64,000 nucleotides of DNA from Syntrophales bacterium (GCA_963664485.1 OY761459.1:709275-773274), one strand, 5' to 3'; positions 41,662-50,606 are shown, numbered from the stretch's first letter. Notes: a model not told the origin generated them from the sequence alone. Program-made: numbers and translations.

Positions 41662-42339
41662 TCCTGTACAGCCGGACAATTTCCGAAAACTGCAGCACCA
41701 TCTTTTGTCATATCCGTTATGCAACACCCTTAGCGAATTTCACACTTGGAACATTCACAACCTGCCGAACATCACATATAACATATTGTGATCGCAGGCA
41801 AAACTGACATACAAAGCCGTCTTACCTATATAACCTCTTGTGAAAGCGATTTTTCATTAATCTTTCGGTACCGTGAAGGTACAAAATGTCAGATAAGAAT
41901 ACGGCATAAAAACCGGTCGAGCGTTCCCAGGACAAGGATATGCATCAGACAGCCAAAATAATTTTTCTCCTCGAGCAATCTAAGTAACCGGAACAAAAAC
42001 ATAAACGTTTTTACAGGAGACCGGTTAGCATATTTCATCATGACTCAAGAATAAAAACAAAAGCCGGTTTACAAGGCAAGACTACTATATACCGAACCAT
42101 GCAAGATATCTCTCGCTTAGTGTCCTCCTTATAAGATTATCCGGGATAATTCCTGCCTTTGATCCGGCGACGCTGACCGCCGAGTATAAAGCATGTGCCG
42201 TTACGATTGAAAAACTGTAACAATGATGATATAAAGCGTGGCCTCTGACTAGTTGTCCTTGGTTGGGGGTCACGCTTGTTTTGTTTTTTACGTAGCGATA
42301 TCGACTCCTTATATAAAAACCATTCCATATGTTTTCATT

Positions 42340-43689
42340 ATGCTGGTATTGGCTTCCATGATCGATAAACTGAATAGATTTTTTTCCTCTATACGACTCA
42401 CCATCTTTTTGTTTCTGTCTCTCGCGGTTACTTCTATCATAGGTACAATAATTCAGCAGGGACTGCCGACGGAACGGTATAAAGCTTTATATAGTTCAGG
42501 TTTGTTCTCCACCTTAAAATTCTTCAATATATTCGACATGTACCACTCATGGTGGTTTACGACCCTGCTGGGTCTGTTGGCAATTAATATTATTGCCTGT
42601 ACCTACAAACAGATTCCCCGCATTATCAGGTTAATCTTCCCAAAGAAAAAAGAGTTCGACGAAACGATTTTCAGATCGTCCCAGATCCGGAAAACATTCC
42701 TGAGTTCTAAAAATATATCGTATCTTGAACGACAATCGGAGGCACTGATACAATCCCTCGCAGGAAACCCGGTAAAGATAACGAAGGATGGATCACGTTA
42801 CTTTTTCGCGGAAAAGGGGAAATTTTCAAGGACGGGAATGCTCATGGTGCATATCAGTATTCTCCTGATACTGGCAGGCGGGTTAGCAGGAACCATAGGA
42901 GGATTTACCGGCCACATGAATATTATCGAAGGAGAAAAATCGGATACGGCCACACTGTTTGGAGAAAAAAAAGCCAGGAAGCTGGGGTTTGCCGTTCGAT
43001 GTGATGATTTCAGCGTCGATTTTTATGAAACAGGCATGCCCAGAGAATACAAGACCGATTTAACGATAATAGATAATGGGAAGGAAGTTGTATCCGGCGT
43101 AATAAGAGTAAATCACCCCTTTGTTTATAAAGGGACAAAATTATGTCAGGCGACATACGGGATCGCAGGTAGTGGAGGGTTCCTGATCGGAGCAACGAAT
43201 AAAAACACAGGAGAAGAAACCGTTTTTAATCTGGACACGATGAAAAAGGTTCCGCTGCCGGGCGGCAATTCTTTTTTTGCGATAGCAAGGTTCCTACAAG
43301 ATGCCGGCGGTATGGGACCCGCGGTATTGGGTGTTTTGCTTGAACCGGGCAAAGAGCACGATATATTCTGGATATTCCAAAACGACCGTGGCGTTAATCA
43401 GCAGCAGAAAGGCGGATTCACCTTTATCCTTAAGGATTTCAACGAGTTGTATTATACTGGAATCCAGGTCAGCAAAGACCCGGGAATTTCTATCGTATGG
43501 AGCGGATTCTGCCTTATTATCATAGGTTTTATTTTAAGCCTTTTCTTTGCACACACAAGAATATGGCTGAGAATTTCATCAGGTCCACAGGACAAATACG
43601 AAATTTCCGTTGCCGCCAGCGTCAGTAAAAACAGAAAATCTTTTGAGGAAAAGCTGGAGACCCTAACCAGGGAAATCGAATCAGAGTAA
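42340..43689 (+). CDS. resB: Cytochrome c biogenesis protein ResB/Ccs1 (system II)
   Basis: ..FFSSIRLTIFLFLSLAVTSIIGTIIQQG.. is the ResB N-terminus, followed by a large extracytoplasmic domain and a C-terminal TM helix. The start is ambiguous (42253, 42340 or 42358). Confidence 0.85.
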   Translation: MLVLASMIDKLNRFFSSIRLTIFLFLSLAVTSIIGTIIQQGLPTERYKALYSSGLFSTLKFFNIFDMYHSWWFTTLLGLLAINIIACTYKQIPRIIRLIFPKKKEFDETIFRSSQIRKTFLSSKNISYLERQSEALIQSLAGNPVKITKDGSRYFFAEKGKFSRTGMLMVHISILLILAGGLAGTIGGFTGHMNIIEGEKSDTATLFGEKKARKLGFAVRCDDFSVDFYETGMPREYKTDLTIIDNGKEVVSGVIRVNHPFVYKGTKLCQATYGIAGSGGFLIGATNKNTGEETVFNLDTMKKVPLPGGNSFFAIARFLQDAGGMGPAVLGVLLEPGKEHDIFWIFQNDRGVNQQQKGGFTFILKDFNELYYTGIQVSKDPGISIVWSGFCLIIIGFILSLFFAHTRIWLRISSGPQDKYEISVAASVSKNRKSFEEKLETLTREIESE

Positions 43690-43696
43690 AAAAATA

Positions 43697-44515
43697 ATGA
43701 ACGACACCTTTCTTATCAGTATAGTAACATTTGTATATTTCTTCGCCGCTTTTCTTTTCCTCGTCTCCACCATCATTAAGAATAAACCGGCAGAGAGATT
43801 GGCCTTCCTGATCACCTTTGCCGGATTAGGGCTCCAAACGGCAGCGATAATTATGCGCTGGATTCATTCGTACCAGCTGGGCATCGGGCACGTGCCTCTG
43901 TCGAATTTCTATGAGTCCCTTGTGTTCTTTTCATGGTCCATCATCTTTGTCTATTTAATAATGAGAAGGCGTTACAGCAACAATCTCTTCGGTATCTTCT
44001 CCGTCTTCTTCGCATTTTTGATATTAGCGTACGCCTCCCTGTCCGGCAACGTAAACTGCACGATTCAGCCGCTTATTCCCGCGCTGCAAAGCAACTGGCT
44101 CATAAGTCACGTCATAAGCTGTTTCCTCGCCTATTCCTGCTTTGCCATTGCTTTCGGAACAAGTATTCTTTACCTCTTAAAGGTCAAGGTAAATATATCC
44201 ATCATTCCCGATGCATCTTTCCTTAACGAGGTAACCTACAAAATGATATCCATAGGATTTGTGTTATTAACATTGGGCATTATCACCGGTGCAGCCTGGG
44301 CCGACCGGGCATGGGGACGTTACTGGGGGTGGGATCCGAAGGAAACATGGTCTCTCATCACCTGGTTTATCTACGGAGCTTTCCTTCATGCACGCCTCCT
44401 GCGCGGATGGAAAGGCGCAAAAATGTCGCTGGTTTCGATTATCGGCTTTATCGCCGTTATCTTTACTTACCTCGGAGTTAACTATGTGCTCTCCGGGCTC
44501 CACAGCTATCTGTAA
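43697..44515 (+). CDS. ccsA: Cytochrome c-type biogenesis protein CcsA/ResC (system II heme handling)
   Basis: Trp-rich heme-binding motif WGRYWGWDPKETWSLITW, with conserved His residues in the flanking helices. Confidence 0.9.
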   Translation: MNDTFLISIVTFVYFFAAFLFLVSTIIKNKPAERLAFLITFAGLGLQTAAIIMRWIHSYQLGIGHVPLSNFYESLVFFSWSIIFVYLIMRRRYSNNLFGIFSVFFAFLILAYASLSGNVNCTIQPLIPALQSNWLISHVISCFLAYSCFAIAFGTSILYLLKVKVNISIIPDASFLNEVTYKMISIGFVLLTLGIITGAAWADRAWGRYWGWDPKETWSLITWFIYGAFLHARLLRGWKGAKMSLVSIIGFIAVIFTYLGVNYVLSGLHSYL

Positions 44516-46915: not shown

Positions 46916-47121
46916 CAGTGCGGAGCAGTAAGGATACACGCCGGCGATTTTATTTTACAATACTGGGTGTCTATCCTTGTGGCGTTTTCGCATTTCAAAA
47001 GATGACTACCCCGGGCAGTTGTGTTTGAGCGACAAAGGCTTGCCGATCAGGTGATCTTTTTATGAATAAAAATAACCGTAATCCATAAACCGGTGTAACC
47101 AACCAGCCCTTCAATCGTTTC

Positions 47122-47604
47122 TTGAACGATATGATTGTCTTTCAGGATTTTTACCGAAATTACAAGGATAGCCTGCTGGCATATCTGCTACGGATGACAG
47201 GCGAGTATGAGGCATCCCGTGATCTGATGCAGGAGAGCTTTACCCGCTGCCTGGAGCGATACGGCCGGGACGGCTGCAAACCATCGCTGCTGTTTACCAT
47301 CGCGCGCAACGCCGTGTATGACCGGAGTCGGCACATACGGGTTCAGGAGCGTTCAGAACTTCAGCGCCGGGCGGAGTCTGTGCATCCGGAGGAGCACCAC
47401 TTGTTACGTGAAGAATATCGACGGGTTCTGAACGCCATCCAGCAGTTGAATCCTGATGAAAAGGACCTCCTCTCTCTGGCGGCGACCGGCATCTATTCCT
47501 ATCGACAGATCGCACAACATGTCGGCATCAGCGAGGCAAACGTCAAGGTGAAGATCCATCGTTCCCGCATGAAACTTAAGAAGCTGCTTGATGAAGGAGA
47601 ATAA
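47122..47604 (+). CDS. ECF-type sigma-70 family RNA polymerase sigma factor
   Basis: Region 2 (..LLAYLLRMTGEYEASRDLMQESF..) and region 4 (..YSYRQIAQHVGISEANVKVKIHRSRMKLKKLL..). The start is either the TTG at 47122 or the ATG at 47131. Confidence 0.88.
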   Translation: MNDMIVFQDFYRNYKDSLLAYLLRMTGEYEASRDLMQESFTRCLERYGRDGCKPSLLFTIARNAVYDRSRHIRVQERSELQRRAESVHPEEHHLLREEYRRVLNAIQQLNPDEKDLLSLAATGIYSYRQIAQHVGISEANVKVKIHRSRMKLKKLLDEGE

Positions 47605-47605
47605 A

Positions 47606-48193
47606 ATGGACGAAATAATAAGCATGTTCATCGATAACGAATTGAGCATCGACGAAAAACTGTCTTTTATAAAAAAGTTGAAGGTCGATCCCGACTTTTT
47701 CAGCGAAACCGTGGCTCTGCTAGAGCAGGAAAAACTGCTCCGGGCCGAAGGTCTGTATACCGCGCCCCCGCTCGATTGGAAAGTACCGGCAAAAGAACAC
47801 GGCAAGCCGCGCAATTTGCTGAAAGGATTCTTTAGTCCCCTGTTGCAACCCGTCGGAGTCATGGCTGTACTGGCTATCGCCGTGTTGGGGATCATGCTGG
47901 CCGGCTTACCTGACCCCGCTGCCACTGTCTGTCCGAGCCGTTTCGTGGTGTACCAACCGGACGCCAGGGAGGTTGCAGTGGCCGGAGAATTTACCGATTG
48001 GCAACCAATGCCCATGCACGCCGCAGGATCCGGAGGATATTGGGAAATCAATCTCGAAGTTCCCGCCGGTGAATATCGTTTTGTATATATCGCCGATGGT
48101 AAAAAGCGTTTTATCGATCCTACCGTACCGGCGAGGGAACAGGATGATTTCGGCGGGGAGAATGGTATTCTTGTAGTAGGGAAATCGATATGA
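47606..48193 (+). CDS. Single-pass anti-sigma factor with a C-terminal CBM48/AMPK-beta-like (E-set) domain
   Basis: N-terminal anti-sigma helix region (MDEIISMFIDNELSIDEKLSF). One TM helix (VGVMAVLAIAVLGIMLAGL). C-terminus ..VVYQPDAREVAVAGEFTDWQPMPMH..GGYWEINLEVPAGEYRFVYIADGKKRFIDP... GGAG-N7-ATG at 47606. Confidence 0.75.
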   Translation: MDEIISMFIDNELSIDEKLSFIKKLKVDPDFFSETVALLEQEKLLRAEGLYTAPPLDWKVPAKEHGKPRNLLKGFFSPLLQPVGVMAVLAIAVLGIMLAGLPDPAATVCPSRFVVYQPDAREVAVAGEFTDWQPMPMHAAGSGGYWEINLEVPAGEYRFVYIADGKKRFIDPTVPAREQDDFGGENGILVVGKSI

Positions 48194-48513
48194 AGAAGCG
48201 ACTTTTTCTCATCGTATTGCTTTTTCTGATGTTTTGCGGATGTTCACAGCACCGCTGCATCAATAACGGGAAGATTAATCTACACCTTGAAGCACCAGGG
48301 GCCGAATCGGTTGTGTTCGTGTCATCTCTCGACAGCTTTAAGCCGCGTTTAATGCACAGGACACCGGAAGGTACATGGATGATTTCCCTGCCGGCATCGA
48401 GAGAGTTCCGCTATTTTTATCTTGTCGACGGCGAGGCCTGTTGCCCGACTTGCAAGTATCGGGAAACGGACGATTTCGGTGCCTGTAACTGTATTTTCAT
48501 TCCCGAAATGTAA
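48190..48513 (+). CDS. Small lipoprotein with a CBM48/E-set-like domain
   Basis: Lipobox LFLMFCGC. ..INLHLEAPGAESVVFVSSLDSFKPRLMHRTPEGTWMISLPASREFRYFYLVDGE.. has the same fold signature as the anti-sigma C-terminal domain. An ATGA overlap links it to the anti-sigma gene. Confidence 0.65.
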   Translation: MKKRLFLIVLLFLMFCGCSQHRCINNGKINLHLEAPGAESVVFVSSLDSFKPRLMHRTPEGTWMISLPASREFRYFYLVDGEACCPTCKYRETDDFGACNCIFIPEM

Positions 48514-48570
48514 CTTTTAAACGCACTGAACGTTTTCAGGATAAAAAGCAATTCCAAAGGAGACCTTTCT

Positions 48571-49455
48571 ATGAAAAAAATACTTTTCTGCATACTGTTA
48601 CTGCTCCTGTGGGCATCGCCGGCACTGTCCGACGAGGTTGAGGACAGGCTGGGTGCCATGGCTACCGAGCAACAGCGGACCGTCACGCGGGCGATGATCA
48701 ACGCCGGCATAGACCCGGAAGATTCCATCCTGATGACACAGGCCATGATCAGGAACCGGTTCCGTGATCAATATACAGTGAGAGCTCAGCAGCTGGCCAT
48801 AGAAGCTAAAAAAGGAAACCTGCCTGTGGAGCCTGTCATGGACAAGGCCTTCGAAGGTATCGCCAAAAAGGCCCCGGACGAGGCGGTAGTCCGTGCCATG
48901 GAAACGGTGCTTTCGCGCTATGCTTACGCGTACGCACATGCCTTACGTTATACACAGCAAAACACCTATCAGCGAAAGATCGGCAACGCCATCGCAGAGG
49001 CCACTACCGCAGGTTTGGCAAACGGAAATGTCAACCAGTTGATGACTCAACTACAACTCAGCCGGCAGCAGCGGGACCGGTACAGGGACAAGACAGACAG
49101 CGACGAGTTTGCCCTGGAAAGTTTCCAAATGGCGCGCGATATGATGCGGCTGGGTGTTCCGACGGATGAGACGGAAGCAGTAATCAGTCAGGCCATCCGG
49201 CAAACCGGCTTCACCGTTCAAAACATGCAAAAGATGCGCCATCGCTTCAGGGAACAGGCTTCCCTGGTCGATCCCGAACAACTGGCGCTGGAGTACTCCC
49301 GTGCTATCCGCGAGGGAGCCGAACCCGGATCGGACATGTCCGAAAACGCATCCCACGGCAGTTCCGCTGACAATAGCAGCGGCAGTTCAGGCGGAAGCGG
49401 TTCCGGCAATAGCGGCGACTCGGGCGGCGGCGACTCGGGCGGCGGGCGAAAATAG
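48571..49455 (+). CDS. Secreted alpha-helical protein with a Gly/Ser-rich C-terminal tail, unknown function
   Basis: Signal peptide MKKILFCILLLLLWASPALS. Predicted helical body. The tail ..SSADNSSGSSGGSGSGNSGDSGGGDSGGGRK. AAAGGAG ribosome-binding site. Confidence 0.6.
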   Translation: MKKILFCILLLLLWASPALSDEVEDRLGAMATEQQRTVTRAMINAGIDPEDSILMTQAMIRNRFRDQYTVRAQQLAIEAKKGNLPVEPVMDKAFEGIAKKAPDEAVVRAMETVLSRYAYAYAHALRYTQQNTYQRKIGNAIAEATTAGLANGNVNQLMTQLQLSRQQRDRYRDKTDSDEFALESFQMARDMMRLGVPTDETEAVISQAIRQTGFTVQNMQKMRHRFREQASLVDPEQLALEYSRAIREGAEPGSDMSENASHGSSADNSSGSSGGSGSGNSGDSGGGDSGGGRK

Positions 49456-49832: not shown

Positions 49833-50606
49833 ATGCGAAAACCCGTTGTAGCTTTTCTGCTCGTACTGCTCCTGTGCTGCTCGGCGTGTTCCGCGACAAC
49901 CGGGAACACCGTCGCTCAAACGTCCACAATCGATGCGCTGCTGGCCGGCGCATACGACGGCAATATGACATGCCGTGAGTTGCTGAAGCATGGCGATCTG
50001 GGTATCGGCACATTCGACCATCTGGACGGCGAAATGACTGTTCTGAACGGAACGGTGTATCAGATCAAGTCCGACGGCAGGGTTTATACCCCCGACGAAA
50101 CTATAACCACTCCGTTTGCCGCCGTCTGCGCATTCGACCCTGACTACACACTGCCCCTGGAAAATGGAATGGATTACGGGGCACTGAAAGCATACGTTGA
50201 CAGTGTAATCGCGAACCGGAATGTCTTTTGCGCCCTCAAGATAACCGGAACATTCAAAAGGATGAAAACCCGCGCTGTCCCGCGGCAGCAGAAACCGTAT
50301 CCGCCCCTGATAGACGTTACCAGAAATCAGCCGGTATTCGATATGGAGAACGTATCAGGTACGATAGCCGGATTCAGGTGTCCACCTTTTGTTCGAGGGA
50401 TCAACGTTCCGGGGTACCATCTCCACTTCATAAGCGATGATTACAAAAGGGGCGGCCACATCCTTGATTTTGAATTGATATCGGGGGTTTCCCAGATGGA
50501 TGTCTGCAATCGATTTCTTTTGATACTTCCGGAGAAGGGCGAAGGGCTGGAGGACCTGGATCTATCAAAGGACCGGAGCAAGGAACTGGAACACGTCGAA
50601 CAATGA
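49833..50606 (+). CDS. Alpha-acetolactate decarboxylase family protein with a lipoprotein-type signal peptide
   Basis: ..STIDALLAGAYDGNMTCRELLKHGDLGIGTFDHLDGEMTVLNGTVYQ.. and ..GYHLHFISDD.. are ALDC signatures. The N-terminus is MRKPVVAFLLVLLLCCSAC. Confidence 0.85.
   Translation: MRKPVVAFLLVLLLCCSACSATTGNTVAQTSTIDALLAGAYDGNMTCRELLKHGDLGIGTFDHLDGEMTVLNGTVYQIKSDGRVYTPDETITTPFAAVCAFDPDYTLPLENGMDYGALKAYVDSVIANRNVFCALKITGTFKRMKTRAVPRQQKPYPPLIDVTRNQPVFDMENVSGTIAGFRCPPFVRGINVPGYHLHFISDDYKRGGHILDFELISGVSQMDVCNRFLLILPEKGEGLEDLDLSKDRSKELEHVEQ

Follow-up and report, generated by a model that had tools for sequence, protein, structure and literature searches.

A cassette of four co-directional genes in a 64-kb stretch of DNA from a Syntrophales bacterium (hereafter the window) probably constitutes a self-contained, positively autoregulated envelope-signaling unit of Desulfobacterota. 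The genes lie on the plus strand and encode an extracytoplasmic function (ECF) sigma factor, a single-pass membrane protein that is presumed from its context to be the cognate anti-sigma factor, a lipoprotein and a signal-peptide-bearing helical protein. The extracytoplasmic domain of the membrane protein and the lipoprotein are paralogues, and both resemble the carbohydrate-binding module (CBM) of family CBM48. ECF sigma/anti-sigma pairs are among the main signaling devices of bacteria; to our knowledge, most ECF groups have no known stimulus, and very few envelope stress systems have been characterized in sulfate reducers. The cassette provides a well-defined, widely conserved case from the Desulfobacterota; its relatives occur in about 290 species genomes, and it comes with a promoter motif from which the regulon can be predicted from sequence alone.

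The four genes described in the initial annotation were all recovered on reading the sequence, and the peptides quoted there are exact in the translation. The sigma gene extends over positions 47131..47604 (157 amino acids (aa); the open reading frame (ORF) also opens at TTG 47122), the presumed anti-sigma gene over 47606..48193 (195 aa), the lipoprotein gene over 48190..48513 (107 aa) and the gene for the helical protein over 48571..49455 (294 aa; the product bears a signal peptide and ends in a Gly/Ser tail, as had been stated). Residue numbers below are those of the window proteins. The close packing noted previously is also present: the anti-sigma gene begins 1 nucleotide (nt) past the sigma stop codon, with an alternative ATG at 47591 that would give a 200-aa product and an overlap with the sigma gene, and the anti-sigma and lipoprotein genes overlap by ATGA.

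Conservation of the four-gene set had been proposed as a check. Matches to the anti-sigma protein number 290 in the protein database, annotated at best as “glycogen-binding domain-containing protein,” and relatives were found in 290 of the species genomes scanned as full-length homologues. Among the genomes listed, essentially all belong to the Thermodesulfobacteriota, including the cultured Desulfosarcina variabilis, and represent the orders Desulfobacterales, Desulfatiglandales, Syntrophales, Desulfobulbales and Desulfuromonadales. Synteny was found to be kept, with all four genes on one strand in 77 of 82 fetched loci and most exceptions at contig ends. The flanking genes vary between loci, and all-against-all clustering of every ORF in 81 loci returned no fifth conserved family present in more than 11 of them and no carbohydrate-related family conserved in the neighborhood. 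Six loci, mainly Desulfobulbales-like, have the order lipoprotein-helical protein-sigma-anti-sigma; a seventh locus with rearranged order, L068, retains its own promoter copies. At a further locus, L018, the 3′-terminal part of the lipoprotein gene (…FGSENCIYVLSM*) is repeated, together with its promoter, directly 5′ of the sigma gene and its promoter (L018:4400-4480); this copy appears to be left over from a tandem duplication or from the alternative order of the genes.

The first protein is an ECF sigma factor, as had been proposed: it scored 79.9 bits against the sigma70-ECF model TIGR02937 (cutoff 42.9) and comprises the Pfam domains Sigma70_r2 and Sigma70_r4_2 and no other domain. No NCBIfam equivalog or subfamily model reached its cutoff, the best being SigM_subfam (82.5 versus 147.95 bits). 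Among the NCBIfam matches listed (25 of 95), all were ECF-type models and none was SigI. The closest solved structure is that of Mycobacterium tuberculosis SigL (E=3e-9). The main text of the 2021 ECF reclassification by Casas-Pastor makes no mention of AMPK, CBM48 or glycogen domains.

The 195-aa protein has a single hydrophobic segment, VGVMAVLAIAVLGIMLAGL, which is its top 19-residue Kyte-Doolittle window (mean 2.67; residues 83-101; 47852..47908, plus strand). Lys and Arg are commoner on the N-terminal side of this helix, in line with an N-in single-pass topology. The cytoplasmic N-terminal segment (residues 1-55; 47606..47770, plus strand), which would contain the sigma-binding helices, carries a conserved SMFIDNEL...LLxQEKLLR motif in which S6, D10, E12, K18, L39 and Q41 are invariant. 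The SMFIDNEL portion resembles what we take to be a common FIDxEL-type first-helix motif of anti-sigma factors. Comparison of residues 1-55 with Pfam and, as a profile, with PDB sequences gave no significant match to an anti-sigma domain, and so the assignment of an anti-sigma role rests on gene position, coupling and topology. The zinc motif HxxxCxxC, which is dispensable for anti-sigma factors outside the zinc-associated anti-sigma (ZAS) group, is also absent; the segment of the window protein contains no Cys and no conserved His. These two features would fit if the protein were merely a co-transcribed envelope protein and the sigma factor were controlled otherwise, but we consider this very improbable. 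In each of the loci examined, on 81 distinct contigs, the gene comes directly after that of sigma, either adjoining it or sharing 1-8 nt with it; the protein is arranged in the membrane like a class I anti-sigma factor, with a highly conserved cytoplasmic segment bearing the FIDxEL-type motif; and zf-HC2 is, among Pfam families, the one matched by the largest number of members, though weakly (4 of 27 N-terminal segments, best E 0.021).

The initial annotation had also assigned CBM48/AMPK-beta-like folds to the periplasmic domains and had suggested that both be checked by profile and structure methods; each was found to be CBM48-like, although by different routes. The periplasmic beta-sandwich of the anti-sigma factor (residues 109-194; 47930..48187, plus strand) exceeded the gathering scores of both PF16561 AMPK1_CBM (39.9 bits, cutoff 26.8, E=5e-10) and PF02922 CBM_48 (28.7 bits, cutoff 22.4), and the family profile matched the AMPK beta1 CBM in the PDB (1z0n, E=7e-9). 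Residues G127, F129, W132, G144, Y145, W146, E156, D171, P172 and T173 are invariant, as are E178, D180, D181, F182, G183 and N186. By profile comparison, the sensor domain truly belongs to the CBM48/AMPK1_CBM superfamily. Exhaustive searching with this domain gave 5438 representative relatives, of which the nearest outside the two cassette families are tandem arrays of 3-17 CBM48/AMPK1_CBM modules: 17 copies occur in one Epulopiscium protein and 7 in a glycoside hydrolase family 13 (GH13) alpha-amylase. Two proteins, P0186 of Candidatus Epulopiscium viviparus (1812 aa) and P0187 (1409 aa), are among these closest non-family relatives.

The domain of the lipoprotein (residues 30-104; 48277-48501, plus strand) fell below the Pfam threshold by itself (12.7 bits), and the profile of its family, built from members in the fetched loci, matched nothing significant among PDB sequences. 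Given that the direct profile search was negative, CBM48 was reached by way of the anti-sigma paralogue and a structural model. The proposed relationship to the anti-sigma domain is evident in pairwise BLASTP (36% identity over 74 aa, E=1e-11) and in alignment of the two families by hhalign (98.5% probability, E=3e-15). An AlphaFold2 model of the lipoprotein (mean predicted local distance difference test score (pLDDT) of 88.3) returned AMPK beta CBMs as its top Foldseek matches, with template modeling scores (TMt) of 0.82-0.84 and root mean square deviations of about 2 Å (1z0n: TMt 0.84, 1.9 Å, probability 1.0); feruloyl-esterase CBM48 modules (6rzn and 7b5v) were also matched.

To relate these domains to known sugar-binding sites, residues of 82 anti-sigma domains, 79 lipoprotein domains and 344 related bacterial CBM48 repeats were mapped onto AMPK beta1. 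The equivalent of W100 is Trp in all 82 anti-sigma domains and in 323 of the related repeats, and Tyr or Phe in 78 of the 79 lipoproteins. At the position of K126, by contrast, Lys is found in 294 of the 344 related repeats (85%) but in none of the anti-sigma domains (0/82; Thr, Ser, Ala or Val) and none of the lipoproteins (0/79; Phe or Tyr). Similarly, W133 is kept as Trp in 211 of 344 repeats (61%) and is never Trp in the cassette proteins (0/82, with Arg, Gln or Lys instead; 0/79, variable). Two of the three principal sugar contacts are, in other words, replaced throughout both paralogue families. Glycogen binding by AMPK beta1 is lost on substitution W100G or K126Q and is reduced by W133L (PMC6274970). 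The equivalents of G147 and N150 are kept in both the anti-sigma and lipoprotein families and in the loop-covering copies of the related repeats (223 and 234 of 344, respectively), and L146 is an invariant Phe in the anti-sigma family, Phe in 76 of 79 lipoproteins and Phe, Tyr or Leu in the related repeats where the loop is covered.

The suggestion of the initial annotation that the system senses a glucan is not upheld by these data. Given that the K126 and W133 equivalents are lost and that no carbohydrate gene occurs in the neighborhood or in the promoter-defined regulon, alpha-glucan sensing by the cassette appears unlikely, and a glycogen-like alpha-glucan is an improbable ligand. Neither the conserved neighbors of the cassette nor the genes with its promoter include a glycoside hydrolase, transporter or glycosyltransferase in the fetched loci. 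The broader proposal, in which the CBM48 domains bind an envelope glucan or other polysaccharide and the lipoprotein acts as co-sensor or competitor, draws on the Pfam scores, on the invariant W100, G147 and N150 equivalents with the invariant Phe at L146, and on the nearest non-family relatives, which consist of CBM48 modules in tandem and in one case are joined to a GH13 alpha-amylase. It is also in keeping with the presence of CBM48 on feruloyl esterases, which takes the fold beyond alpha-glucan enzymes, and with a precedent for CBM-bearing anti-sigma factors in RsgI (PMC10328401, PMC6852018). In view of the altered sugar contacts, their documented effect in AMPK beta1 and the absence of linked carbohydrate genes, we nevertheless regard polysaccharide sensing as rather unlikely. 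Retention of the W100, G147 and N150 equivalents together with the GH13-linked relatives means that some glycan could still be the ligand; the same face may bind another glycan or something that is not a glycan.

The signal peptide of the lipoprotein ends in a lipobox (MKKRLFLIVLLFLMFCGC in the window protein; family consensus L-x-G-C), the Cys of which, Cys18, is conserved in 97% of 80 sequences. The initial annotation had remarked on several Cys residues in this protein. Eight are indeed present, but family-wide conservation is limited to Cys18, C88 and C101, and the other five are species-specific. C88 and C101 occur in 99% of 80 sequences and without exception in a 30-sequence alignment, and are confined to the lipoprotein paralogue. 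The five additional residues (C16, C23, C84, C85 and C99) are missing even in 60%-identical orthologues, and C85 stands where the family often has Tyr or Phe.

Both sensor domains are held close to a membrane by short tethers: the transmembrane helix of the anti-sigma factor ends at residue 101 and its domain begins at approximately residue 109, and in the lipoprotein the lipid-bearing Cys is residue 18 and the domain begins at approximately residue 30. Such an arrangement would suit a surveillance system for envelope integrity or lipoprotein trafficking, similar to NlpE-Cpx or RcsF-Rcs, in which the two paralogous beta-sandwiches bind one another. Here, the anti-sigma domain would sit at the inner membrane and the lipoprotein normally at the outer membrane, and a mislocalized, accumulating or lost lipoprotein would alter anti-sigma stability; the helical protein would be a periplasmic protector or a feedback inhibitor like CpxP. 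The duplication of the sensor domain as a lipoprotein and the constant co-encoding of the pair are consistent with this scheme, as are the loss of the canonical sugar site, which suits protein binding, and the fact that the main target, a secreted helical protein, has a promoter to itself. The residue after the lipid-bearing Cys, among the sequences listed, is not Asp. However, the rule by which that residue governs lipoprotein sorting is that of Escherichia coli and may not hold in Desulfobacterota, and the invariant loop common to the two domains could equally signify a shared small ligand. Surveillance by mutual binding of the paralogues is, on balance, an unlikely explanation.

Two ECF-type promoters are predicted within the cassette. 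The first, P1, has the exact pattern TGTAAC-N16-CGTT at 47094..47119 (plus strand), 5′ of the sigma gene; it comprises GTAAC-N16-CGTT at 47095-47119 and, within that, the AAC-N16-CGT motif reported earlier at 47097-47118. The pattern GTAAC-N16-CGTT has exactly two matches in the window, compared with 0.25 expected. When the DNA upstream of sigma was aligned across 80 testable orthologous loci, P1 was present at the same place in 72, with the consensus TGTAACcTTtt-N-CGTTAta. CGTT and the sigma start are separated by exactly 11 nt in 40 of these 72 loci and by 8-12 nt in 59, and a Shine-Dalgarno-like motif precedes sigma in only 3. Taken together, the maintained spacing and the scarcity of Shine-Dalgarno motifs indicate that the near-leaderless arrangement envisaged in the initial annotation is a conserved property. 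The real start of sigma is most likely ATG 47131, not TTG 47122, given the conserved 11-nt spacing from the predicted promoter and the 157-aa gene calls on near-identical contigs. P1 would accordingly lie where an autoregulatory promoter of sigma is expected, and it is predicted to be one. Consensus scans of the cassette returned no sigma-70 promoter and no plus-strand terminator.

The second promoter, P2, is an exact copy of the P1-type pattern at 48509..48534 (plus strand; GTAAC from 48510) and is found in 53 of 78 loci. It lies 36 nt 5′ of the ATG of the helical-protein gene, at 48571, which is preceded at a distance of 8 nt by a Shine-Dalgarno AGGAG (48558..48562, plus strand). The GTAAC of P2 begins one base before the TAA stop codon of the lipoprotein gene in 52 of the 53 P2-bearing loci, and thus the stop codon belongs to the −35 element. 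The end of the lipoprotein coding sequence would therefore be constrained by the promoter; its last residue is nearly always Met or Leu. Given that it has its own copy of the sigma-type promoter, the helical protein is predicted to be a direct target of sigma and is probably the principal one. In the six rearranged loci, which have the order lipoprotein-P2-helical protein-sigma-anti-sigma, sigma lies approximately 120 nt 3′ of the helical-protein gene, P1 is absent and P2 is the only copy in the cassette, from which it follows that P2 may also supply autoregulation.

In other genomes, extra promoter copies beside the cassette precede genes for small secreted proteins of low complexity, rich in Gly, Asp and Ser and sometimes in Gln and His. 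Examples include L081:7165-7593 and L017:7116-7523 and, on the minus strand, L052:7221-7556, L011:3613-4191 and L032:8886-9137. Many of these Gly-rich proteins share LLLA[RK]GGG after the signal peptide and GPGDGTGN-type repeats, and some are rich in DG[ST]GD and QHQH repeats; none belongs to a Pfam family. No promoter-linked Gly-rich protein of that kind was found in the window. At the rearranged locus L055, a promoter copy lies 5′ of a gene for a 400-aa secreted protein (L055:3147-4349), between the helical-protein gene and sigma, and this protein has two CxxCH heme-binding motifs (CQTCH and CATCH). A further candidate in the window, GTAAC-N17-CGTT at 41984-42009, has a spacer one base too long and was judged a probable chance match; it lies approximately 270 nt 5′ of ResB/CcsA-type cytochrome c biogenesis genes (42253-44515).

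The helical protein, for which 63 homologues were found, was modeled confidently by AlphaFold2 (pLDDT 88.9, predicted template modeling score 0.79). The model contains twelve helices, the first of which (residues 2-30) covers the signal peptide (residues 1-20), with the other 11 spanning residues 33-247; a weak internal repeat relates residues 39-87 to 188-237. A disordered Gly/Ser tail follows from about residue 250 to 294 (49321-49452, plus strand), contains GDSGGGDSGGG and ends in GSSGGSGSGNSGDSGGGDSGGGRK. No meaningful Pfam or NCBIfam family was matched by the protein and 54 homologues, and Foldseek gave no PDB match to the model at E<=1e-3, the best being de novo designed repeats at TM<0.3.

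An acidic loop, [RK]ExDDFGxEN, is invariant in both paralogues and occupies the position of the sugar-binding loop. It could be imagined that this loop (E178, D180, D181, E185 and their lipoprotein equivalents) and C88/C101 bind a metal ion or other cation, and that a secreted regulon rich in Gly, Asp, Ser, His and Gln buffers or sequesters periplasmic metals, in functional analogy to CnrYXH. The DG[ST]GD and QHQH repeats of regulon members and the GDSGGGDSGGG of the helical-protein tail would fit such a role. Related bacterial repeats, however, carry a (D/E)DG[FLM]GGxNS loop; since this is common in ordinary CBM48 repeats, the cassette loop is a variant of a common feature, not a unique one, and may be structural. 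Moreover, the two invariant Cys residues are confined to the lipoprotein, and no metal transporter or resistance gene is conserved beside the cassette. Metal sensing is thus decidedly improbable.

The picture that we favor, and consider likely as a whole, is that of an autoregulated ECF sigma/anti-sigma envelope cassette with a CBM48-like sensor pair. In this model, the 195-aa protein would hold sigma at the membrane through its N-terminal helices, and the beta-sandwich next to the membrane would perceive an envelope signal, its lipoprotein paralogue serving as a partner or a competitor. This signal would lead to loss of the anti-sigma factor, presumably by regulated proteolysis in analogy to RseA, RsiW and RsiV, all of which are removed in that manner. 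Freed sigma would then fire P1, resulting in positive autoregulation, and P2, resulting in expression of the helical protein as the main output; in other genomes, the secreted Gly-rich disordered proteins would be produced as well.

Certain observations weigh against this picture. Aside from the anti-sigma N terminus, for which no significant domain match was obtained, an exact P2 match is absent from 25 of 78 loci, and P1 and P2 were both recognized from conservation and consensus only. The alignment underlying the lipoprotein model consists mostly of anti-sigma paralogues, and consequently the model leans toward the anti-sigma fold. Finally, the retained W100, G147 and N150 equivalents, and close non-family relatives that include the CBM48 repeats of a GH13 amylase, mean that the ligand may yet be some glycan. 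More tentatively, and as a possibility that we hold with some doubt, the CBM48 fold may have been repurposed in Desulfobacterota as a non-glycan sensor pair, formed by the anti-sigma factor and the lipoprotein, for an envelope component or for lipoprotein trafficking, controlling a previously unrecognized regulon of secreted Gly-rich disordered proteins that includes the helical-repeat protein. Should the ligand be non-glycan, the cassette would clearly exemplify the recruitment of a CBM fold to envelope signaling, and would offer a lead on what the secreted Gly-rich disordered proteins do and on the role of a helical-repeat fold without a solved relative.

Downstream of the cassette in the window, positions 49833-50606 encode an alpha-acetolactate decarboxylase homologue with an N-terminal lipoprotein-like signal peptide (MRKPVVAFLLVLLLCCSACS). 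Alpha-acetolactate decarboxylase is normally cytoplasmic, and secretion would be unusual. The gene is followed by those for an Old Yellow Enzyme-type flavin oxidoreductase and a CGGC-domain protein, and the same trio is also found 3′ of the cassette in close relatives (L083-L085).

Comparison with canonical ECF/class I pairs, such as RpoE-RseA of E. coli and SigW-RsiW and SigV-RsiV of Bacillus subtilis, reveals a common plan: a two-domain sigma factor (sigma-2 and sigma-4), a single-pass partner, N-in and translationally coupled, that has an extracytoplasmic sensor domain, and an autoregulatory promoter whose −35 element is of the AAC type and whose −10 element is of the CGT type. The cassette differs from these pairs in that its anti-sigma N terminus has neither a significant anti-sigma match nor the zinc motif, its sensor is a CBM48-like sandwich with a paralogue encoded separately as a lipoprotein, and its second promoter overlies a stop codon inside the operon. 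Small secreted all-helical proteins that are induced as the strongest direct targets of an adjacent envelope-stress regulator are known in CpxP of the Cpx system and in Spy, and CseA of the Streptomyces sigE-cseABC operon is an accessory lipoprotein encoded within a sigma operon. The helical protein may be likened to CpxP and Spy and the lipoprotein to CseA, and any feedback or chaperone role is suggested by analogy; Pfam and Foldseek detected no similarity of the helical protein to these in sequence or fold.

The initial annotation knew of no characterized example of such a system. CBM-bearing anti-sigma factors are, in fact, known: the RsgI proteins of Clostridium thermocellum are membrane anti-sigma factors that carry extracellular CBMs (PMC10328401, PMC6852018, PMC4711584), and the cassette shares with them an extracytoplasmic domain of carbohydrate-binding-module fold. 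The statement holds for the particular combination found here, in that RsgI pairs with sigma-I and no description of an anti-sigma factor with a CBM48/AMPK-CBM domain was found in the searchable literature. RsgI proteins are Gram-positive surface sensors with CBM3, CBM42, PA14 or glycoside hydrolase modules, and their regulons are cellulosomal enzymes, whereas the cassette has no linked carbohydrate-active gene and lacks key sugar-binding residues. Given its ECF-type sigma factor, its different CBM family and an anti-sigma N terminus with no RsgI_N match in Pfam, the cassette is not a member of the RsgI family. With the AMPK beta CBM and bacterial CBM48 modules (1z0n, 4yef), the sensor domains share their fold and detectable sequence homology, the equivalents of W100, G147, N150 and D136-P137, and the L146-N150 loop; they differ in the K126 and W133 equivalents and in occurring singly, tethered to a membrane in the periplasm and attached to no enzyme or kinase. 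In summary, the signaling logic is familiar, being in outline that of an ECF sigma/single-pass anti-sigma pair, and the new details are the type of sensor domain, its duplication as a lipoprotein, the promoter that lies over a stop codon and the secreted regulon.

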